The position numbers were made by a program, and so were the translations under genes. Of a stretch of DNA of 6,776 bases, positions 1-6,776 are shown piece by piece (the first letter of the stretch is position 1; every line of letters starts with the position of its first letter). The DNA lies in the IMG/VR virus record IMGVR_UViG_2654587674_000004; one strand, written 5' to 3'. The notes beneath the pieces were generated by a model. The model was not told the origin of the DNA. It worked only from the letters and a program-made list of their open reading frames with translations, and ran no database searches. This DNA is from a virus (lineage: Duplodnaviria; Heunggongvirae; Uroviricota; Caudoviricetes).

Positions 1-13
1 TTGTGGAGTGGAT

Positions 14-1288
14 ATGGCAGCAGTAAAAATCTCAGGTGTGCTGAAAGATTGTGCGGGAAAACCAATACAGAACTGCACTATTCAACTGAAGGCAAAGCGT
101 AACAGCACCACGGTACTGGTGAACACGGTGGCCTCTGAAAATCCGGATGAAGCCGGGCGTTACAGCATGGATGTTGAGCATGGCCAGTACAGCGTCATCC
201 TGCTGGTTGAAGGTTTTCCGCCTTCACATGCCGGGACCATTACCGTCTATGAAGGCTCCAGACCAGGTACGCTGAATGATTTTCTCGGTGCCATGACGGA
301 AGAGGATGTCATGCCGGAGGCATTGCGTCGTTTTGAGGCAATGGTGGAAGAAGTGGCACGCAACGCCGAAGCCGCCTCTCAGAGCGCAGCGGCGGCAAAG
401 AAATCCGAAACTGCAGCGGCATCATCGAAGAACGCGGCGAAAACCTCAGAAACGAATGCAGCTAATAGTGCACAGGCGGCAGCGACCTCAAAGACTGCAT
501 CGGCAAACTCAGCGACAGCAGCCAAAAAATCAGAAACCAACGCGAAAAACAGTGAGACAGCCGCAAAGACGAGCGAAACCAACGCAAAGTCCAGCCAGAC
601 GGCAGCGAAAACCAGCGAAACGAATGCCAAAGCCAGTGAAACTGCGGCAAAAAACAGCCAGGCTGCAGCAGCTGAAAGCGAGAGCGCGGCAGCCGGTTCT
701 GCGACTTCAGCAGCTGGATCAGCAACTGCTGCGGCTAACAGCCAGAAAGCTGCGAAGACGAGTGAAACTAACGCAAAGTCCAGCCAGACGGCAGCGAAGA
801 CCAGCGAAACGAATGCCAAAGCCAGTGAAACTGCGGCGAAAAGCAGTCAGGATGCAGCGGCCCAAAGCGAGAGTGCCGCAGCCAGTTCTGCAAGCGCGGC
901 GGCTGCTTCTGCCACTGCATCAGCTAACAGTCAAAAAGCAGCAAAAACCAGTGAAACCAACGCAAAGGTGAGCGAAACAGCGGCTGCGAACTCAGCGAAA
1001 GCATCGGCAGCAAGCCAGACGGCAGCTAAAGCAAGCGAAGATGCAGCCAGAGAGTACGCAAGCCAGGCTGCGGAGCCGTATAAATATGTCTTACAGCCGC
1101 TGCCTGATGTGTGGATACCATTTAACGATTCGCTGGATATGATTACGGGCTTTTCGCCATCATATAAAAAAATTGTTATTGGTGATGATGAAATAACGAT
1201 GCCTGGCGACAAGGTTGTTAAGTTTAAACGACAGGGACGGATAATTTTGGTTTTACCTATGGAAAGTTTGTCTGCAACGATTCTCTGA
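14..1288 (+). CDS. stf: Side tail fibre protein, Stf family: N-terminal tail-attachment domain plus Ala/Ser/Thr-rich repetitive shaft. At about 425 aa it is short for this family and may be truncated or split from the next ORF.
   Basis: The N-terminus (MAAVKISGVLKDCAGKPIQNCTIQLKAKRNSTTVLVNTVASENPDEAGRYSMDVEHGQYSVILLVEGFPPSHAGTITVYEG...) matches my recollection of the conserved N-terminus of lambda Stf and the K-12 prophage Stf homologues. GGAG at 5-8 sits 5 nt upstream of ATG 14; the ORF track's GTG at 8 is the less likely start. The body is KTSETNAK-type repeats. Confidence 0.8.
   Translation: MAAVKISGVLKDCAGKPIQNCTIQLKAKRNSTTVLVNTVASENPDEAGRYSMDVEHGQYSVILLVEGFPPSHAGTITVYEGSRPGTLNDFLGAMTEEDVMPEALRRFEAMVEEVARNAEAASQSAAAAKKSETAAASSKNAAKTSETNAANSAQAAATSKTASANSATAAKKSETNAKNSETAAKTSETNAKSSQTAAKTSETNAKASETAAKNSQAAAAESESAAAGSATSAAGSATAAANSQKAAKTSETNAKSSQTAAKTSETNAKASETAAKSSQDAAAQSESAAASSASAAAASATASANSQKAAKTSETNAKVSETAAANSAKASAASQTAAKASEDAAREYASQAAEPYKYVLQPLPDVWIPFNDSLDMITGFSPSYKKIVIGDDEITMPGDKVVKFKRQGRIILVLPMESLSATIL
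571..968. repeat. Intragenic tandem duplication in the stf shaft: 189-bp (63-codon) unit, two full copies plus the start of a third, embedded in a wider low-complexity region (about 370-1060)
   Basis: The motif ag(c/t)gaaac(c/t)aacgcaaagtcc recurs at 571, 760 and 950 (period 189). The encoded 63-aa units are near-identical (KSSQTAAKTSETNAKASETAAK...ANSQKAAKTSETNA). Confidence 0.85.
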
Positions 1289-1311: not shown

Positions 1312-2217
1312 ATGGCATCAATTGCTGCAACAAAGTCAGTTGATGTCTCAGGCGATAATAAACACGTGACAACCTCATGTCGTTTTAAAACAGAACTGCA
1401 GGTAAGGTTGCGTATCCGGTTTGATAAATATGACGGTAGCGCAACAACTTTTCTTGGTGATGCGTATATTGATACACAAACGCTTGAAATTAATATGACA
1501 GGCGGTGCTGCCTCAAGGATTACAGCGAGAGTCAGAAAGGACGAAGCTACCGGATGGATTTTTGCAGAGGCAACAATTCAGGCAATTGATGGGGAGTTAA
1601 AAATAGGCTCTCAGATACAGTATTCTCCTAAGCAGAGCGGGGCAACCGTATCTGGTGACTATATTTATCTGGCCACCCCACAAGTAGAAGATGGGCCTTG
1701 TGTATCATCTTTTATTATATCAGGAGCGACGGCGGCGACCCGCGCAAGCGATATAGTTACAGTTCCAATTAAGAATAATCTTTATAATCTTCCTTTTACG
1801 GTTCTTTGTGAGGTACATAAGAACTGGTATAAAACGCCAAATGCAGCGCCACGTGTTTTTGATACCGGCGGTCATCAAACCGGAGCGGCTATTATTCTTG
1901 GCTTCGGTCGTTCAACAGATTACGACGGATTTCCTTATTGCGATATTGGAGGAGCTAACAGACGGGTAAACGAAAACGCATCGCTTGAAAAAATGGTTAT
2001 GGGGATGCGTGTAAAGTCAGAGCAGTCTACGTGCTCAGTAAGTAACGGGCATATATCCAGCGAAACAAAAACCACATGGTCCTGTATTCAGAACACCGCA
2101 ATTATCCGTATTGGAGGCCAGACTACAGCCGGGTTACGTCATTTATTTGGTCATGTCAGGAATTTCAGAATATGGCACAAGGCATTGACTGATGCTCAGG
2201 TGGGGGAGTCAATCTAA
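1312..2217 (+). CDS. Tail-fibre distal / receptor-binding protein with a C-terminal concanavalin-A-like (LamG-type) jelly-roll motif; possibly the distal part of a split tail fibre
   Basis: The C-terminal segment ...GLRHLFGHVRNFRIWHKALTDAQV fits the characteristic closing strand of LamG/ConA-like lectin domains (F-x-G-x-h-x-x-h-R-I-[YW]-x-[KR]-A-L-[ST]). Its reading frame is open from 1228, overlapping the 3' end of stf. Composition is beta-rich and Gly/Thr/Ser-rich. Confidence 0.6.
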   Translation: MASIAATKSVDVSGDNKHVTTSCRFKTELQVRLRIRFDKYDGSATTFLGDAYIDTQTLEINMTGGAASRITARVRKDEATGWIFAEATIQAIDGELKIGSQIQYSPKQSGATVSGDYIYLATPQVEDGPCVSSFIISGATAATRASDIVTVPIKNNLYNLPFTVLCEVHKNWYKTPNAAPRVFDTGGHQTGAAIILGFGRSTDYDGFPYCDIGGANRRVNENASLEKMVMGMRVKSEQSTCSVSNGHISSETKTTWSCIQNTAIIRIGGQTTAGLRHLFGHVRNFRIWHKALTDAQVGESI

Positions 2218-2498
2218 TGAAAGATTTAACACTCAAATTTGCCGACAGGGCCGACTTTTCGGCCTTTATGGAGAGTATTGGCTATTATGATGACGAGTCG
2301 ATGCAGGATGATATTCTTATTGACGTGATAGGTAACGTGTACAAAGAAACCGGAGAACTGACTGAAGATGGCGAACCGGTATGTGTTAAGGAAGACGGAT
2401 ATTTTGTAAACGTGCGCATCATTAATGATTCGCAAATATCGTCATTATTCGATGAATACGTGGTTGCTGTTGAGCATCAACTTCGTGGCTGGATGTGA
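2217..2498 (+). CDS. Small acidic hypothetical protein (93 aa), translationally coupled to the upstream gene; function unknown (possibly a fibre-associated chaperone or adaptor)
   Basis: The stop/start overlap TAATG at 2215-2219 couples it to the upstream ORF. The protein is strongly acidic (many D/E) with no predicted transmembrane segment. I do not recognise the family. Confidence 0.5.
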   Translation: MKDLTLKFADRADFSAFMESIGYYDDESMQDDILIDVIGNVYKETGELTEDGEPVCVKEDGYFVNVRIINDSQISSLFDEYVVAVEHQLRGWM

Positions 2499-2507
2499 GG
2501 AAGAAAA

Positions 2508-3548
2508 ATGGCTACATCGACAGTAATTCCTGATGACATCAAAACGCTAAAATCCGACGTTAGCAAATTAAAAAACGATCAAGGAAGCTACGCAACAAAA
2601 TTATATGTAGACAGCAAAGATGAAATCGTTGGTGACTGGTCTGCTTCATGGTATCAGCAGGTATTGCCAACTAGCGGAGCTATATTTGGGAGAAAACTCC
2701 GCTCAACTCACAGGACGGCAGGTGTTGAGGATGCGTATTGCGAACTATACCTCAAAAAATGGATAGACAGTCCAGGTAACGCAATGGCGCGCCTTAACCT
2801 GAACGATAACGGGACAAACATTTGCTGGGACTTTACCAACCTTTATGGCGGTACGATGATTTTTCCCGGTGACAGCGGATACCTCAAAATGGGTAACTGC
2901 CTTATGTCATACAGCAAGCGTGGAAGTAACGCGCTTATTAAATTTGATTACACCGACACATTACAGATCAAATATGCCAATCATGGGTCAACCATGACAT
3001 TAAACACACAGGGAACCGCTTATGCTGGTGTTACTGCTCAATTGTGGGGCAACTCCAGCCGTCCTGTTGTTTATGAAGTCGGTGTTGATGGTGGCGCTTA
3101 TATGTTCTATGCGCAGAAAAATACCGATAACACCTATATGTTAAGCGTTAATGGTGCATGTCATGCCACCGCATTTAACCAGCATTCCGACCGGGATCTG
3201 AAAGACAACATTCAGGTGATCGATAATGCAACCGACCGCATCCGTAAAATGAACGGCTATACATACACGCTTAAAGAAAACGGTATGCCCTATGCTGGTG
3301 TCATTGCACAGGAAGCTCTGGAAGCAATCCCAGAAGTTGTAGGTTCCGCAATGAAATATCAGGACGGTGCAAGCGGATCGGAAGGTGAAGAAGGTGAACG
3401 TTATTACACAGTAGATTATTCTGGTGTTACTGGCTTGCTTGTTCAGGTAGCCAGAGAGTCAGACGACAGAATAACAGCACTGGAAGAAGAAAATGCAGAA
3501 TTAAAACAAAGATTATCTGCAATTGAGGCGACGCTTGCGTCTAAATAA
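2508..3548 (+). CDS. Tail fibre / tailspike-like protein with a C-terminal intramolecular chaperone auto-proteolytic domain (peptidase S74 / endosialidase-chaperone type)
   Basis: The C-terminal 120 aa (...FNQH-SDRDLKDNIQVIDNATDRIRKMNGYTYTLKENGMPYAGVIAQEALEAIPEVVGS...YYTVDYSGVTGLLVQVARESDDRITALEEENAELKQRLSAIEATLASK) match the conserved S-D-x-x-x-K-x-N-I...G(V/I)IAQE...PE(V/A)V...VDY...coiled-coil pattern of the self-cleaving chaperone domain of phage K1F endosialidase and T5 L-shaped fibre. The Shine-Dalgarno GAGGAAG lies 7 nt upstream of ATG 2508. Confidence 0.75.
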   Translation: MATSTVIPDDIKTLKSDVSKLKNDQGSYATKLYVDSKDEIVGDWSASWYQQVLPTSGAIFGRKLRSTHRTAGVEDAYCELYLKKWIDSPGNAMARLNLNDNGTNICWDFTNLYGGTMIFPGDSGYLKMGNCLMSYSKRGSNALIKFDYTDTLQIKYANHGSTMTLNTQGTAYAGVTAQLWGNSSRPVVYEVGVDGGAYMFYAQKNTDNTYMLSVNGACHATAFNQHSDRDLKDNIQVIDNATDRIRKMNGYTYTLKENGMPYAGVIAQEALEAIPEVVGSAMKYQDGASGSEGEEGERYYTVDYSGVTGLLVQVARESDDRITALEEENAELKQRLSAIEATLASK

Positions 3549-3552
3549 TATT

Positions 3553-3577
3553 AAGGGGCCGAGCGCCCCGTTTTATT
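3553..3577 (+). terminator. Rho-independent terminator after the tail-fibre gene block
   Basis: GGGGC (3555-3559) pairs with GCCCC (3565-3569) around a 5-nt loop, followed by the T-tract GTTTTATT (3570-3577), immediately after the TAA stop at 3546-3548. Confidence 0.7.
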
Positions 3578-3590
3578 GGGTAGGATGAAA

Positions 3591-3884
3591 ATGGATATAA
3601 CACCTTTCCTTCATGCACTTTGTGCTGTGGCTGCGCAGGTACTGGTTGGTCTTTTTACCGGAAACTGGGCTTACGGGGCGATAGCCGGTTGTACGTTCTT
3701 CATTGCTCGTGAACATACCCAGGCAGAATATCGCTGGATTGAAATGTTCGGGCATGGCAAGCGTATGAATATGCCGTGGTGGGGTGGTTTTGATCCGCGC
3801 GTGTGGGATGTGGCAAGCCTGATGGATTTTTCTGTGCCGGTGGTGGCTTGTCTGCTGGTCTGGCTGTTGGTTAATCGTGGGTGA
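3591..3884 (+). CDS. Small integral membrane protein (about 97 aa, 2-3 predicted TM helices), phage moron-like; function unknown
   Basis: Hydrophobic stretches ITPFLHALCAVAAQVLVGLFTGNWAYGAIAGCTFFIA and LMDFSVPVVACLLVWLLV. AGGA at 3582-3585 sits 5 nt upstream of ATG 3591, which I prefer over the track's TTG at 3576 because that lies inside the terminator T-tract. Confidence 0.5.
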   Translation: MDITPFLHALCAVAAQVLVGLFTGNWAYGAIAGCTFFIAREHTQAEYRWIEMFGHGKRMNMPWWGGFDPRVWDVASLMDFSVPVVACLLVWLLVNRG

Positions 3885-4037
3885 AAAAGGGAGTTGTAAA
3901 CGCAACACAGGAAGAGGTGCCGCTTCAGGTTGCTGGGAATAAGCGCCGGGGTCTGTTAAATCATGCCAATACGCTAATCGAGCCAGATATTGAGTAGCCT
4001 GCAGTCCGTCATGGCGTAATCGTTTTGTGATATGCTG

Positions 4038-4106
4038 CACGCCGTATGCAAGGAGCATGATTGCGCTCGACTGGCGAGCGCTCGATAGTGCTACTATTGA
4101 ATGATT
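4038..4106. repeat. Copy A of an imperfect direct repeat of about 70 nt (partner at 5509-5575)
   Basis: Two conserved blocks shared with copy B in the same orientation: cacgccgtatgcaagga (4038-4054; 15 of 17 identical to 5509-5525) and cgatagtgctactattgaatgatt (4083-4106; 22 of 24 identical to 5552-5575), separated by a divergent 28-nt spacer. Weaker similarity may extend about 30 nt further upstream. Confidence 0.7.
4063..4081. repeat. Perfect 7-bp inverted repeat inside the spacer of repeat copy A (hairpin or palindromic binding site)
   Basis: GCGCTCG (4063-4069), 5-nt loop ACTGG, CGAGCGC (4075-4081). No flanking T-tract on either strand, so it is not a typical terminator. Confidence 0.5.
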
Positions 4107-4241
4107 GCTAGTCTAGGCGGATTGTACTTAAGTAATATGACGGTTCAAGGCGTTTAATCTGAAACCAGCCACATATTAGCCTTTTCAAACATTTCCTGAA
4201 CACTCAGGCTTACCTGCTCTTTCTCGTGCTTGCTGGCATTT

Positions 4242-4275
4242 GTGTTGAGCGCCGGTGAATACTCTTACTCAACAC
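4242..4275. repeat. 8-bp inverted repeat with an 18-nt spacer (possible operator-like dyad)
   Basis: GTGTTGAG (4242-4249) and CTCAACAC (4268-4275) are exact reverse complements. Confidence 0.4.
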
Positions 4276-4347
4276 TCCCAGAATTATATCTGTTGCATCA
4301 GGCAGACCATCAAAATTCTTTTGTCATAAACGAGTTCCACGAATAAT

Positions 4348-4366
4348 GTGCCCTATGGTAGGGCAC
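4348..4366 (-). terminator. Candidate weak terminator hairpin downstream of the minus-strand orphan gene
   Basis: Perfect 8-bp stem GTGCCCTA / TAGGGCAC with a 3-nt loop, 64 nt past the stop at 4430-4432. On the minus strand it is followed by ATTATTCG, a weak U-tract, so it could instead be a protein-binding palindrome. Confidence 0.35.
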
Positions 4367-4379
4367 TATTGATATGAAT

Positions 4380-5330
4380 GAGTAGCTAAAAAGATTTTTC
4401 GTTATGTATTAATGTATCTGTCACTTATTTTATAGTAAAGATGATATGCCAGCAAGAAATGGAGTAAATACTGTAATGTGTGCAGATACATTATTAATAA
4501 AGTCCTTATATGCTTCTTTAAAACAGCCGCTTTGGTGACTGGCTGCCAGTGCCTGTACATTATCTATAAGGTGTGATTCTGTCGCGCCATCAAAGTTTTT
4601 CGATTTTATTGCCTCAATCATTTCATTAAATATTGTGGGCTCATTATAATTTGTCGTAGTAGTTGCCGTAGCACCTGAAGAATGTATATTGATACTAGAA
4701 CCGGAAATTCCACTGACATGAATATTAGCTTCTTGTTTCATAAGAGGTAAACCATTCTCCATCTTGTATAGGTCACTATCTTGTAGCATCTGCAATGTGA
4801 TACGTACTGCTGCTAATAGTTGTTCTTGCTTTTTGAATAAGGAACACATCTGTTCTACAGACCAAAGCTGAACTGCATTTTCTTCGCATGTTTTTTTAGC
4901 TATATTTGGCACTTCCGAATCATAATTACCATAAACCCAAGTGTCCTTGAATCTTTCGATAATAGCTGTCAACGTTGGAAATTTACTGAAATCACTATTA
5001 ATGGATAGTAACTCATCAGACATATAAAGTGCCATATCTCTGCCTTCCGCATATACTGCTTCCACTTTATTCCGTGTTGCAAATGGTATTCTTGAAATAA
5101 AACGAAAATCCTCTTCATTTTTTAAATGGACCCAGTCTTTATCAAAACGGCTAAATTCGTACCCTATCGATAACAGTCTACTTATATATTGGGCTACTGA
5201 TTCCAAATCTTTTCTTATGTCCAAAGTATTACTCCTGCTTGTCAACCGAGTCTGTCGGTTTTCTTACAAATGGCTTGTCTTTAAAGTTCTGATTAAAAAG
5301 ACGCTAACCAATACTTAATAATACATGAAA
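4380..5330. other. AT-rich island of foreign-looking composition containing the orphan gene
   Basis: Hand counts on 60-nt lines inside 4441-5040 give about 30% GC, against about 50% in the tail-fibre and sit genes on either side. Confidence 0.7.
4430..5224 (-). CDS. Orphan hypothetical protein (264-271 aa) in an AT-rich island: helical N-terminal region, Ser/Thr/Gly-rich linker and hydrophobic C-terminal tail. Candidate accessory cargo (defence/exclusion, toxin or effector); function unassigned.
   Basis: Longest ORF is 4430-5245 with a TTG start. I prefer the in-frame TTG at 5222-5224 because AGGAG (minus strand, plus coordinates 5232-5236) lies 7 nt upstream of it; there is no in-frame ATG until about residue 71. 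The C-terminus AHITVFTPFLAGISSLL is hydrophobic and the linker reads HVSGISGSSINIHSSGATATTTT. I recognise no family. Confidence 0.6.
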   Translation of the reverse strand: MDIRKDLESVAQYISRLLSIGYEFSRFDKDWVHLKNEEDFRFISRIPFATRNKVEAVYAEGRDMALYMSDELLSINSDFSKFPTLTAIIERFKDTWVYGNYDSEVPNIAKKTCEENAVQLWSVEQMCSLFKKQEQLLAAVRITLQMLQDSDLYKMENGLPLMKQEANIHVSGISGSSINIHSSGATATTTTNYNEPTIFNEMIEAIKSKNFDGATESHLIDNVQALAASHQSGCFKEAYKDFINNVSAHITVFTPFLAGISSLL

Positions 5331-5355
5331 AAAAAGCGCATAAGCTGGCTTTTTT
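5328..5355 (-). terminator. Candidate bidirectional intrinsic terminator between the sit operon and the orphan gene
   Basis: An A8 tract (5328-5335), an imperfect hairpin (AAGC 5334-5337 pairing with GCTT 5348-5351, plus inner GC 5338-5339 pairing with GC 5344-5345 around loop ATAA, with a 2-nt bulge) and a T6 tract (5350-5355). On the minus strand this reads hairpin then U8, about 340 nt downstream of the sitD stop. Confidence 0.45.
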
Positions 5356-5508
5356 ATCAATCGGGAACTGCGGCCCCTTTGCGTATCCTTTTTTGTTTCT
5401 TCACCGTCTGGTCGGTGTTCTGCTGAGACTGCTAATTTCCTGTTTTTGCTAGTGCTGTCTTGGCACTGTCCATCGTGATTGGTGGACTGGTGAAGTTGAA
5501 ACCGCAGA

Positions 5509-5575
5509 CACGTCGTATGCAAGAACGTGCTGCGGCTGGCTGGTGAACTTCCGATAGTGCGAGTATTGAATGATT
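5509..5575. repeat. Copy B of the imperfect direct repeat of about 70 nt (partner at 4038-4106)
   Basis: Blocks cacgtcgtatgcaagaa (5509-5525) and cgatagtgcgagtattgaatgatt (5552-5575), in the same order and spacing (26-nt spacer versus 28 nt) as copy A. Confidence 0.7.
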
Positions 5576-5696
5576 TACAGCCGTTATTGATTTTACATAT
5601 TTTTTGTATGAAAGGATTAGCGCCTCCTCCCAACGTCCGCCCATGACTTTCTGGACTGCAGTGTACTAGCGGACAATGCTGCCCTCGGATGTTGTG

Positions 5697-6554
5697 CTAA
5701 TTGGGGGATAACAGATCCTGTCTATGAGCGTTTCCCTTTGTGCGTGCGTTGAAACTGATAACGGTAAACGTCATGATGAACACAACCGCGAATAAGACGA
5801 CAATCGTCGGAGCTGGTGCGCTGTCGATAAAAAAGGACAGCCAAACACCAGTCATTGAGACTATTACCGATATGCCAGTCGCCAGTAGGAGTGCAATATG
5901 AAAGCGTTGTGTCAGGAGTACCGCAATGGCGCCAGGCGCAATGAGCAGAGAAATGGAGAGAATGATACCTACTGCTTTCAGCGTCGCCACAATGGTCAGG
6001 GAAACCATGCACAGCAGCCCATAATGCAGCCATCGCGTATGCAAACCGCTTACCTGCGCCTGTTGATAATCAAAGCTGAACAGCAAAAAATCCCGCCATT
6101 TTACGCTAATAACAAGTGTAACCAGCCCGGCAATAATCATCGTCTGGATTATATCGCCGATGGTTACCCCGAGCATGTCGCCGAAAAGAATATGGTCAAG
6201 ATGTATGTCTGGTTTGACTGCAATATACAAGATCAGACCTGCGGCAAACATGCCAGAAAAAACAATCCCCATCACTGTATCTTGCTTGATTCGGCTGTTG
6301 TCTTTCAGGTATCCCGTCGCCACCGCGCAGAATACTCCGGCGATAAATGCCCCTGTAGCCAGAGGTAACCCCAGAATCCAGGCAAGCACGATGCCAGGAA
6401 AAACCGCATGACTCATCGCGTCACCCATCAGTGCCCAACCTTTCAGGACCAGAAAGACCGACAGCAGCGCACAGGGTATGGAAACTACCAGTGAAATCAG
6501 CAGTGCGTGACTCATAAAGGTGAACTGCAGTGGCTCCAGTAATAATGCCATCAT
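5697..6554 (-). CDS. sitD: ABC-3 family Mn/Fe transporter permease, SitD/MntD-like
   Basis: 285-aa polytopic membrane protein with the ABC-3 permease pattern (...DAMSHAVFPG..., ...ILFGDMLGVTIGDI...). Its start overlaps the stop of a second upstream permease in an ATGA arrangement (6551-6554), as in sitC-sitD type operons. The SitD versus MntD/other ABC-3 assignment is from context and recall. Confidence 0.8.
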   Translation of the reverse strand: MMALLLEPLQFTFMSHALLISLVVSIPCALLSVFLVLKGWALMGDAMSHAVFPGIVLAWILGLPLATGAFIAGVFCAVATGYLKDNSRIKQDTVMGIVFSGMFAAGLILYIAVKPDIHLDHILFGDMLGVTIGDIIQTMIIAGLVTLVISVKWRDFLLFSFDYQQAQVSGLHTRWLHYGLLCMVSLTIVATLKAVGIILSISLLIAPGAIAVLLTQRFHIALLLATGISVIVSMTGVWLSFFIDSAPAPTIVVLFAVVFIMTFTVISFNARTKGNAHRQDLLSPN

Positions 6555-6776
6555 GAGCGATCCTCCAGCGCTTTATGCGCACGCCGACGATTTGCCAAAA
6601 GCCCATGGGTGGGCGCAAATACAAATGCTAAAAGAAACAGCAGTGTCTGCGCCACCACGATGATTCCACCTGTCGCGCCGTCCAGAAAGTAACTGACCCA
6701 CGCGCCGAGGAAACTGGTTACACTGCCAATAGTTACAGCAATTATGAGCAGGCGGGGAAAACGATCGGTTAACAAC
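6551..6776 (-). CDS. sitC: ABC-3 family Mn/Fe transporter permease, SitC/MntC-like; 3' portion only, the gene continues beyond the window end
   Basis: The C-terminal 74 aa are open to the window edge (...SYFLDGATGGIIVVAQTLLFLLAFVFAPTHGLLANRRRAHKALEDRS), typical of an ABC-3 permease C-terminus. The TGA stop overlaps the sitD ATG. Confidence 0.7.
   Translation of the reverse strand, partial: LLTDRFPRLLIIAVTIGSVTSFLGAWVSYFLDGATGGIIVVAQTLLFLLAFVFAPTHGLLANRRRAHKALEDRS

Follow-up and report, generated by a model that had tools for sequence, protein, structure and literature searches.

We found that a lone, AT-rich gene beside the tail-fibre genes of a lambdoid prophage encodes a protein whose front half recurs, in other bacterial proteins, ahead of the killer domains of immune systems. 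Because this conserved front half is fused elsewhere to immune killer domains, the protein is most likely a single-gene anti-phage defence protein, and we give about an even chance to the specific reading that it is a stand-alone, mobile, two-module cytoplasmic protein of the abortive-infection type, carried as prophage cargo. Anti-phage defence was one of several functions listed in an earlier note on this DNA. It is now the favoured one, given the fusions of the N-terminal domain (N-domain) to TIR, SEFIR, CHAT, PNP and transmembrane (TM) effectors and the carriage of the family on mobile elements, and nothing was seen in support of a secreted virulence effector. The window analysed here is a stretch of 6,776 nucleotides of viral DNA (IMG/VR record IMGVR_UViG_2654587674_000004), and the features discussed are collected in Table 1.

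Table 1. Features of the target gene and its surroundings, in positions of the window
Feature	Position	Strand	Basis
Cargo block missing from otherwise collinear ST131 sit-prophage	3916..5676		blastn of window vs ST131 locus (L010)
Left copy of lambda b-region-derived repeat bracketing cargo	4038..4106	+	direct repeats D1/D2, alignment A3
Frameshifted DinI-like pseudogene	4154..4340	-	RefSeq annotation of L001, offset 10701
Terminator-like GC-rich hairpin, 64 nt 3' of stop	4348..4366	-	consensus scan, RNA fold
Coding sequence, 264 aa, RefSeq WP_000354607.1	4430..5224	-	ORF list, RefSeq annotation of identical locus L001
Small helical bundle and hydrophobic tail, residues 197-264	4433..4636	-	AF2 on A7, KD19
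Ser/Thr/Asn/Gly-rich strand-prone segment, residues 161-196	4637..4744	-	alignments A1, A5, A7
N-domain, residues 1-160, helical bundle, constant superfamily module	4745..5224	-	alignment A1, AF2
Shine-Dalgarno AGGAG, 7 nt before TTG start	5232..5236	-	read from sequence
Weak A/U-rich hairpin with U8, between sitD and target gene	5326..5359	-	RNA fold
Right copy of the same lambda b-region-derived repeat	5509..5575	+	direct repeats D1/D2, alignment A3

The gene and its expression signals

A single gene had been drawn from 4430 to 5245. One long open reading frame was indeed present there, on the minus strand, but its start lay at 5224 rather than 5245, giving 264 aa. The start codon is the second TTG of the frame (5224-5222) and the stop codon occupies 4432-4430, so that the protein begins MDIRKDLESV; most of the 38 aligned homologs and RefSeq WP_000354607.1 begin at this same position. 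The Shine-Dalgarno sequence claimed for the gene was found. Also as described, the gene lay between the tail-fibre module of a lambdoid prophage (Pfam phage_tail_N, 1e-65; Peptidase_S74, 5e-14) and sitD (Pfam ABC-3, 2e-75). The GC content of the gene was 35.6% and its GC3 27.5%, compared with 49.2% and 54.9% for sitD; the GC content was 51.5% for the phrog_1443 gene and 42-52% for the tail-fibre genes. The gene is therefore clearly lower in GC than both flanks, as the earlier note had stated, but at about 36% rather than about 30%, and the left flank is at 42-46% rather than 50%.

Terminator-like hairpins had been proposed on both sides, and only the downstream one held. It formed an 8-bp stem (-14.8 kcal/mol, z=-3.75) followed by a poor U-tract, whereas the upstream one folded no better than chance (-10.4 kcal/mol, z=-0.44) and is possibly a weak, perhaps leaky, terminator of sitD. 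On the coding strand, no sigma-70-like promoter scoring at least 9/12 was found upstream of the gene. Scans of this region for tRNAs and Rfam families gave nothing over threshold. Transcription may start at an AT-rich promoter that escapes recognition, or may come by read-through from the sit operon on the same strand. Read-through from sitD is possible because the intervening hairpin is weak.

A variable cargo slot in the prophage

Comparison of the window with the sit-prophage of ST131 by blastn gave homology that ended at 3915 and started again at 5677. The inserted unit was thus not the gene alone, as first proposed, but a block of 1.76 kb that includes the frameshifted DinI-like pseudogene. 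The gene and this pseudogene were co-inherited, being found in the same 105 genomes; the target stands as a lone gene between the pseudogene and sitD, with sitD as its sole intact neighbour. The wider element around the right repeat (5500-5650) was about 86% identical to lambda 24162-24308, and gene order ran from gpJ through Lom and the tail-fibre genes to the cargo. On sequence grounds, the slot is the equivalent of the b region of phage lambda, which is dispensable. A further copy of the lambda-derived repeat was seen beyond sitA in ST131.

The contents of the slot varied. It was empty in the ST131 prophage, held a Bcr/CflA efflux gene in SCU-109, and had other content in W409. This neighbourhood comparison agreed with the expectation of a variable cargo slot beside the tail fibre, and the description of the gene as single-gene accessory cargo of foreign composition stood as well, given its GC content relative to the flanks and the polymorphic slot. 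The target gene was carried by 105 of the 5,426 complete E. coli genomes, and all 105 copies were at least 99% identical and in one fixed context beside the DinI-like pseudogene. The carrier E. coli belong to a clinically common lineage.

The target gene resembles the cargo of the lambda b region and lambdoid morons (lom, bor, ea31/ea59, sitABCD) in its position distal to the tail-fibre genes, in being bracketed by lambda b-region sequence, and in its foreign composition and presence/absence polymorphism. It differs from them in having only one convincing flanking hairpin and in the lack of a promoter of at least 9/12. The moron label rests on position and autonomy, not on function.

A mobile family under purifying selection

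The gene had been called an orphan, which it is not. Its full-length family comprised about 85 clusters at 90% identity, almost all of about 264 aa, and domain relatives numbered 1,374 representatives (clusters at 50% identity) at E<=1e-3 and 614 at E<=1e-10. Distribution of the family was patchy, in Proteobacteria and beyond. On the other hand, the statement that no known family could be recognised was correct, in that there was no curated match in Pfam, NCBIfam, PHROG or PDB. Searches of Pfam, NCBIfam and PHROGs with the protein and 39 family members returned no real match; the best hit, MethyTransf_Reg, had an E value of 0.03, below the cut-off. Sequence searches of the PDB with the single sequence and two profiles hit only repeats in de novo 4-helix designs, and fold searches with the models recovered generic helical bundles only. 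We found no homology to validated defence proteins. By tblastn, neither 50,697 sequenced phage genomes nor the PLSDB plasmids contained the target gene, and a literature search on the accession, PDC-M14 and the architecture found no description.

When the target was compared with seven homologs, pN was 0.15-0.31 against a saturated pS of about 0.78. The family is under strong purifying selection. In 22 of the 24 tabulated representative loci, the GC content of the gene was lower than that of the locus, often by 0.15-0.25, and the family was more AT-rich than almost every host.

These data bear on the proposal that the gene rides as a silent passenger in this E. coli lineage, where it would be intact but unexpressed and would persist only through the youth and clonality of the lineage. 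The near-identity of the 105 copies in their single context would fit this, as would the TTG start, the lack of a consensus promoter, a GC content of about 36%, typical of H-NS-silenced DNA (H-NS silences AT-rich DNA), and the IS-disrupted copies in other genomes. However, the Shine-Dalgarno sequence is good and the frame intact, the whole family shows the selection described above, and read-through from sitD past the weak hairpin is possible. We consider a silent passenger quite unlikely.

Members of the family were located in lambdoid prophages (in three different slots), in a Klebsiella ICE, in a P4-like satellite and in island-like spots, and the roughly 10 annotated contexts were mostly prophage, ICE, satellite or island. 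One E. coli copy adjoined a reverse transcriptase and a SMEK protein. In an unbiased census of 23 representative loci, 120 neighbours fell into 77 Pfam families, none of which was present in more than three loci. Integrases were most frequent, and AAA_15/21, Type ISP and many housekeeping flanks were also seen; defence content was modest. The family gene moves alone between mobile elements, without a conserved neighbour. A second 264-aa gene in an Enterobacter prophage was unrelated to the target family.

A mobile, AT-rich single gene with effector-like relatives could also encode a toxin or an addiction-type function, which would keep mobile elements stable or harm competitors and have no relation to phage. 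Against this, neither the window nor the context of any homolog showed an adjacent small antitoxin or immunity gene, and no context was linked to a secretion system. Moreover, 105 genomes stably retain an intact copy, which indicates that the protein is not constitutively toxic. We regard such a function as very unlikely.

The N-domain and its partners

The AF2 model of the whole protein had a pLDDT of 85.9. Residues 1-156 were all-helical, and the N-domain was modelled at pLDDT 88-97. Fifteen positions of this domain were invariant (R4, D6, R16, W31, K35, N36, E38, D39, E55, Y58, G61, R62, N76, P83 and W121). With a polar cluster this invariant, the domain would more probably recognise a conserved ligand or partner than a fast-evolving phage protein. 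No relatives of the domain were found in Pfam or the PDB, and it matched no sensor domain there or in PADLOC.

The N-domain alone recurred at the N-terminus of proteins of 190-740 aa. Behind it, the C-termini of relatives matched the CAP12/Pycsar TIR (5e-24), TIR_2 (2e-28), SEFIR (5e-8), PNP_UDP_1 (2e-13) and CHAT (2e-8), and others were of PADLOC type, namely the C-terminal part of PDC-S54 (1e-74), PDC-S66, PDC-S35 and bSEFIR. In 29 of the 132 representatives analysed, the N-domain was followed by just a short tail containing a strong TM helix, and others had two or three TM helices. No further architectures or Pfam labels came from a word-indexed search that used the N-domain profile. Judged from these alignments, the N-domain is a constant module joined to alternative C-termini in the relatives.

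Effector-associated domains couple TIR, CHAT and PNP effectors to STAND/NLR sensors, and TIR, CHAT, PNP and TM partners are reportedly typical of adaptor-coupled effectors. The partners of the N-domain are that same set, and its high conservation across phyla is what one would expect of a module for homotypic interaction. The protein might then be a defence component unable to work alone, whose N-domain would be an adaptor for docking to a sensor from another locus of the genome. However, the gene moves alone, with no recurring neighbour in the 23 representative or the roughly 10 annotated loci, and the N-domain has about 160 aa and long helices, in contrast to death-like adaptors of about 100 aa. 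No STAND NTPase was present among the best 25 of the 77 neighbour Pfam families, and the fetched loci held no second copy of the N-domain apart from IS-split genes. An adaptor of this kind is, in our judgement, improbable.

The C-module and the membrane question

The earlier description of a helical N-terminal region, a Ser/Thr/Gly-rich linker and a hydrophobic C-terminal end agreed with the models. Residues 161-196 (SGISGSSINIHSSGATATT) had a pLDDT below 50 in both monomer models, with a low-confidence stretch rich in Ser, Thr, Gly and Asn at 164-192; the family core was R-[IV]-N-[IV]-x-S-T-D-N-S-x-N, and S182 was invariant. Beyond this segment, AF2 on alignment A7 placed helices at 198-208, 213-232, 235-245 and 247-261 (pLDDT >90), and the conserved pattern of the hydrophobic tail was F..AY..F...aaNHxT...PF.PAL...LL.

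The C-module (residues 161-264) also followed small N-terminal regions rich in beta structure, both at a defence-island-like locus (REase-ARP, SLFN/AlbA_2, KAP NTPase) and on a PrimPol element. From these combinations, the C-module is taken to be a separable, autonomous unit. Two apparently stand-alone C-modules (P0236 and P0237) were IS-split full-length genes. The sole PADLOC hit of the protein was a weak partial match of this module to PDC-M14B (E 1.7e-3, residues 163-251 against profile positions 149-239 of 267), and 9 of the 39 family members matched this profile in register, again weakly (best 1e-4).

The earlier note had suggested a membrane-acting protein. Analysis of the C-terminus for a TM helix gave a borderline result: the end is hydrophobic, but the Kyte-Doolittle 19-residue maximum was 1.53 (residues 246-264), and the customary cut-off for a membrane helix is near 1.6. 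No signal peptide or clear TM helix was seen in the protein. The tail contains a conserved Asn-His and a Pro, and in the AF2 model it is packed into the bundle as the final helix. Since the tail is sub-threshold, carries these conserved residues and is packed in the bundle, membrane action is uncertain; it is plausible, and the designation as membrane-acting was not sustained.

The hydrophobic C-terminal helix would also suit a non-killing factor in lysogenic conversion, superinfection exclusion or competition between elements, acting for example by a block of DNA entry or of a receptor. The site is equivalent to the b region near the tail-fibre genes, a setting shared with Lom, sitABCD and the SCU-109 efflux gene, which favours this idea. 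Yet the target has neither a signal peptide nor a clear TM helix, the family is also found on ICEs, satellites and non-phage islets, and fusions of the N-domain to TIR, CHAT and PNP suggest effectors that kill the cell or deplete metabolites. A function of this type is unlikely.

How single-gene defence would work

For the favoured reading, a single-gene defence of the abortive-infection type, we infer that the N-domain acts as sensor or regulator and the C-module as a swappable effector. Upon activation, copies of the protein would associate through the strand-prone Ser/Thr/Asn motif, after which the helical bundle, whose last helix is hydrophobic, would injure the cell. The membrane would be the leading candidate target, and the infected cell would halt growth before phage release.

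A bolder version, to which we assign a low probability, is that the family is a new single-chain immune switch in which beta-sheet assembly of the motif releases a membrane-permeabilising helix. The helical sensor would restrain the Asn/Ser/Thr-rich strand-forming motif until infection; the motif would then template amyloid-like or beta-solenoid self-assembly and unpack the adjacent mini-bundle, and the freed hydrophobic helix would permeabilise the membrane. The protein would be the proteobacterial equivalent, in a single chain, of HET-s/HeLo or RHIM-type signalling, and across bacteria this sensor would serve again to trigger TIR, CHAT, SEFIR and PNP effectors. By analogy only, fungal HET-s/HeLo, RHIM and bacterial BASS/Bell have a similar short, conserved, strand-prone motif, rich in Asn, Ser, Thr and Gly and disordered as a monomer, which likewise adjoins a small helical domain whose terminal helix is hydrophobic. 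In the target, however, the order of elements is reversed, there is a single polypeptide and no NLR partner, and the hosts are unicellular Proteobacteria.

Comparison with known defence systems

In bSEFIR, ThsB-type TIR, CBASS/Pycsar TM and TIR, and PNP ATP-nucleosidase effectors, a constant regulatory domain is combined with interchangeable killing modules, as in the relatives of the target, and such effector-swapping proteins are also carried on mobile elements. The target differs from them in that it has no TIR, SEFIR, CHAT or PNP catalytic domain and no cyclase-like, signal-producing partner nearby.

PDC-M14B is similar in length (about 267 aa, against 264), and the C-terminal residues of the target, about 90 in number, align with it in register. 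PDC-M14 is, however, a two-gene candidate whereas the target is a lone gene, and the PDC-M14B profile does not cover the N-domain. No PDC-M14A partner was present at the locus of the target, and the neighbours varied in all other contexts. PDC-M14 and the other PADLOC PDCs are candidates from guilt-by-embedding (Payne et al. 2024 preprint, 10.1101/2024.01.29.577857).

AbiT of Lactococcus lactis (AbiTi and AbiTii) requires two genes, in contrast to the target, a lone gene with an all-alpha N-domain. The target protein had no AbiTi match at E<=1, and only P0173-class relatives matched AbiTi. Homology of its C-module to the P0173-class C-module, and through it to AbiTi, was not significant (hhalign/hmmsearch, E 0.08-0.14). 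AbiTii (PF18864), an alpha+beta domain (PMC3710099), was not matched in 39+58 proteins. The UniRef label "AbiTii domain-containing" on P0067 was likewise set aside, since there was no AbiTii match at E<=1 and the fold class differs.

Significance

The slot in the lambda b region, beside the sit iron/manganese transporter, is a point of cargo exchange bracketed by recurring lambda-derived sequence. If the target is inactive, it remains one of many hypothetical prophage genes. If it is protective, then domain libraries and PADLOC 2.0 have missed a widespread family of defence proteins (about 1,400 clusters at 50% identity). Such a result would also name a new sensor or regulator domain that is wired to TIR, SEFIR, CHAT, PNP and membrane effectors, and the N-domain would serve as a handle for finding the infection cue that so conserved a domain reads.

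Start, composition and signals of the target gene

The earlier note had placed a single gene at 4430-5245. One long ORF does occupy that interval on the minus strand (271 codons in the ORF list, counted from the first TTG), but the real start is the second TTG at 5224. RefSeq lists exactly this 264-aa product as WP_000354607.1, 'hypothetical protein', at an identical locus (L001), and in most of 38 aligned homologs the N-terminus (M-[DE]-[IV]-R-K-D) falls at the same residue. The gene has its own Shine-Dalgarno, as had been proposed. Its AT-richness against the flanks was real (35.6% GC and 27.5% GC3, versus 49.2% and 54.9% in sitD, 51.5% GC in the small gene at 3576-3884 and 42-52% in the tail-fibre genes), but smaller than a hand count of about 30% versus 50% had indicated. 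Of the terminator-like hairpins expected on both sides, the downstream one held up (8-bp GC-rich stem, -14.8 kcal/mol, z=-3.75 versus shuffles), though with a poor U-tract; the upstream one, an A/U stem with U8, was no better than chance (z=-0.44) and would serve sitD, on the same strand. Upstream of the gene, the coding strand showed no sigma-70-like site scoring 9/12 or better. A 14-nt inverted repeat pairs codons of the hydrophobic tail with the 3' UTR just beyond the stop; the RNA fold of 4395-4500 gave z=-2.76, and the repeat may serve to stabilise or terminate the 3' end, or may have arisen by chance.

Features of the window
Feature	Position	Strand	Description
Tail-fibre ORF	8-1288		Prophage tail-fibre N-terminal domain, Pfam 1e-65
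Indel	1230/1231		172 bp, window versus L001
ORF	2217-2498		PHROG match, function unknown
ORF	2508-3548		Peptidase_S74 chaperone domain
ORF, probably spurious	3573-4058		161 aa; overlaps the phrog_1443 gene on the opposite strand
phrog_1443 gene	3576-3884	+	102-aa hydrophobic protein; phrog_1443 9e-59, PHROG of unknown function
Cargo block	3916-5676		Missing from an ST131 strain
Imperfect direct repeat	4038-4106, 5509-5575		Brackets DinI-like pseudogene and target gene
DinI-like pseudogene	4154-4340		Frameshifted
Downstream hairpin	4348-4366
Inverted repeat	4407-4420, 4483-4496		93% complementary
Target gene	4430-5224	-	264-aa product
Shine-Dalgarno	5236-5232	-	AGGAG, 7 nt ahead of the TTG start
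Upstream hairpin	5326-5359
Rfam CssrB match	5472-5534		Overlaps the repeat; weak, sub-threshold, E 0.05
Wider repeat element	~5500-5650		~86% identical to phage lambda 24162-24308
sitABCD	5697-6776	-

A variable cargo slot in a lambdoid prophage

The window corresponds to a lambdoid prophage's right arm. RefSeq neighbours of the locus are tape measure, gpJ and Lom genes upstream and sitDCBA-uspF-ompN-nifJ downstream, the latter side being the Rac attachment neighbourhood of K-12. The tail-fibre gene at 8-1288 carries a long internally repeated region rich in Ala/Ser/Thr/Lys; it is annotated as a pseudogene in L001, which is otherwise identical to the window, and the indel there points to length changes driven by the repeats or to differing assemblies. 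The phrog_1443 gene, whose product had no Pfam or NCBIfam match, ends the tail-fibre module in the three prophages retaining it (window/L001, SCU-109 and ST131).

Neighbourhood comparison bore out a variable slot, since collinear sit-prophages differ at this point: in the ST131 strain the phrog_1443 gene abuts sitD, SCU-109 has a Bcr/CflA efflux gene there, and W409 has yet other content. The target gene and the DinI-like pseudogene co-occur in 105 of 5,426 complete E. coli genomes, and because the copies share one context and never fall below 99% identity, they reflect one acquisition in one lineage. One of the 105 was reported on a plasmid-typed rather than a chromosome record. The target gene had no match in 50,697 sequenced phages or in PLSDB plasmids. 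The lambda-like element of the bracketing repeat was found in 196 phage records, among them Stx phages. Its copy in a K-12 lambda lysogen adjoins HNH-endonuclease and AAA-ATPase genes, where the dispensable b region has its ea47-ea31 interval. ST131 has another copy on the far side of sitA (L010 10650-10781). The target gene therefore sits in the equivalent of the lambda b region, a zone in which cargo appears to turn over by exchange at the repeated sequence; the repeat looks like a recombination linker for swapping b-region cargo, the sit operon included. sitABCD (window, L001, L009, L010 and L011) lies within lambdoid-prophage right arms at either of two chromosomal sites, uspF-ompN (Rac-type) and, in ST131, beside an icd fragment and ymgL-ycgX-bluR, so the transporter operon is itself prophage cargo.

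A conserved family outside curated libraries

The gene had been called an orphan, which proved wrong: a search of 5.8 billion proteins returned 85 related clusters, nearly all of 261-267 aa and down to about 32% identity, in Escherichia, Enterobacter, Klebsiella, Serratia, Edwardsiella, Vibrio, Pseudomonas, Marinomonas and others. Only 25 loci turned up when 185,579 species genomes were scanned by pattern; they lay in Gamma- and Betaproteobacteria, plus one each in Gemmatimonadota, Campylobacterota, Cyanobacteria, Aquificales and Planctomycetota. Non-synonymous divergence was 0.15-0.31 with synonymous sites saturated (~0.78), and the protein is therefore under strong purifying selection. In 22 of 24 tabulated loci the family gene had lower GC than its own locus (e.g., 0.33 versus 0.56 in Citrobacter, 0.37 versus 0.59 in Larsenimonas). 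Searches of Pfam, NCBIfam, PHROGs and PDB sequences gave no match to the protein, in agreement with the earlier note's failure to recognise a family.

Full-length homologs occurred in an E. coli lambdoid prophage between replication genes and the Q antiterminator gene, in an Enterobacter prophage late region, beside tail genes, in a Klebsiella ICE after TraC, in the cargo region of a P4-like satellite of Pseudomonas veronii, in small islets of Vibrio and Celerinatantimonas, and in E. coli adjoining a 613-aa reverse transcriptase (RVT_1) and a SMEK_N protein. The last homolog, a divergent one (58% identity; L006 323-3422, L008 458-3557), lies near the ecp fimbrial operon in what is likely a defence island. 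Across 23 further loci, 120 neighbours carried 77 different Pfam families, each confined to three loci at most; integrases (3), AAA_15/AAA_21 ATPases (2), a Type ISP enzyme and a P4-type primase were commonest, mixed with ordinary genes. The gene is thus clearly mobile and has no obligatory partner. The presence of defence genes among the neighbours is suggestive.

A constant N-domain with interchangeable C-termini

The AF2 model (39 homologs, pLDDT 85.9) agreed with the proposed helical N-terminal region, showing a long-helix bundle at residues 1-156 (pLDDT 88-97), then a stretch below 50 (164-192) and helices at 197-262. Invariant polar residues of the N-domain (residues 1-160) across the family are R4, D6, R16, W31, K35, N36, E38, D39, E55, Y58, G61, R62, N76, P83 and W121, with K35, N36, E38 and D39 belonging to an 'HLKNxED' motif. 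The supposed Ser/Thr/Gly-rich linker is present but far from random in sequence, being conserved across the family (SGVSGSSININSxGATA, S182 invariant), with the core R-[IV]-N-[IV]-x-S-T-D-N-S-x-N in a wider alignment. When the C-module (residues 161-264) was modelled alone with 65 diverse sequences, this motif stayed disordered and residues 198-261 formed a compact four-helix bundle (pLDDT >90), of which the hydrophobic tail is the last helix. That tail (246-264, VSAHITVFTPFLAGISSLL) is hydrophobic as claimed but sub-threshold for a TM helix (KD19 1.53). Its pattern, F..AY..FI..AANHMT...PF.PAL...L, includes a conserved Asn-His and Pro, and it resembles a dedicated surface for packing or interaction more than an unspecific anchor.

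Among 1.84 billion representatives searched exhaustively by HMM, 1,374 relatives reached E<=1e-3, of which 614 reached <=1e-10. For most of the top 150 the N-domain was the sole matching part, N-terminal within proteins of 190-740 aa. We sorted 132 representatives by what follows it: the target-type C-module (31), a short tail with a strong TM helix (29), a short tail without one (13), or a C-terminus longer than 110 aa (59); several further relatives have 2-3 TM helices. Long C-termini matched CAP12/Pycsar TIR (5e-24), TIR_2 (2e-28), SEFIR (5e-8), CHAT (2e-8), PNP_UDP_1 (2e-13), a phage tail-collar domain, LRV repeats, the C-terminal part of the PADLOC candidate PDC-S54 (1e-74), PDC-S66, PDC-S35 and bSEFIR. 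A C-module-only profile also found it behind small beta-rich N-termini, once amid REase-ARP, SLFN/AlbA_2 and KAP-NTPase genes and once in a PrimPol element. Two apparent stand-alone C-modules were discarded as full-length genes cut by IS elements. IS3-family and IS4-type (DDE_Tnp_1) insertions split N-domain from C-module in two metagenome-assembled genomes (L018 4205-6354; L019/L020 3688-6414), and the L019 gene adjoins an AAA_15/AAA_21 ATPase and HNH gene pair. In a second class of N-domain proteins (P0111, P0121, P0148, P0176, P0177, P0180, P0189, P0209 and P0223), the ~120-aa C-terminus opens with a Gln/Asn/Gly-rich motif (e.g., INIQNFQGILGNV..S.V.QNL) and continues in helices; hhalign against the target C-module gave E 7e-4 at only 26% probability, a hint that the pairing of a strand-prone motif with helices recurs as a design.

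A constant domain joined to interchangeable TIR, CHAT, PNP or TM modules is a hallmark of bacterial immune proteins. The constant N-domain would therefore be sensing or regulatory and the variable part the effector. We take this modularity as the decisive evidence.

Links to known defence systems and a proposed mechanism

The only defence-library match of the target protein was PADLOC PDC-M14B (E 1.7e-3; residues 163-251 versus profile 149-239 of 267), recurring in register in 9 of 39 family members; such PDCs are themselves untested 'guilt-by-embedding' candidates. The C-terminus of P0173, a relative sharing the N-domain, matched PDC-M14B and lactococcal AbiTi (both ~1e-8). Profile-profile and HMM comparisons of the P0173 class with the target C-module were not significant (E 0.08-0.14), the target protein had no AbiTi match, and its N-domain differs from AbiTii of the AbiT system, an alpha+beta domain.

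Our preferred reading, at about even odds, is that the target protein is a single-gene abortive-infection-type defence, and we infer every step of how it would act. The N-domain would keep the protein inactive and sense a conserved cue, which its invariant charged cluster suggests to be a small ligand or some conserved component of host or phage rather than a rapidly evolving phage protein. On activation the strand-prone motif would self-associate, and the mini-bundle would next act on the cell. The membrane, named in the earlier note, would be the leading target, since some 30 relatives carry a genuine TM helix at the corresponding position, but the conserved polar and proline residues of the tail and its packing in the AF2 bundle make this less certain; overall we hold it doubtful. 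A bolder but improbable reading is a one-chain executioner triggered by a beta motif, analogous to HET-s/HeLo or RHIM signalling.

The target gene and sitDCBA share a strand with only a weak hairpin between them, and read-through from sitDCBA would tie expression of the gene to iron/manganese limitation. Prophage cargo encoding a modular candidate immune protein is a familiar kind. Its parts are less so: for both modules, curated families and solved relatives are lacking, and the searchable literature yielded no description of either and no mention of WP_000354607.1. The target gene is a good candidate for defence, among many such.
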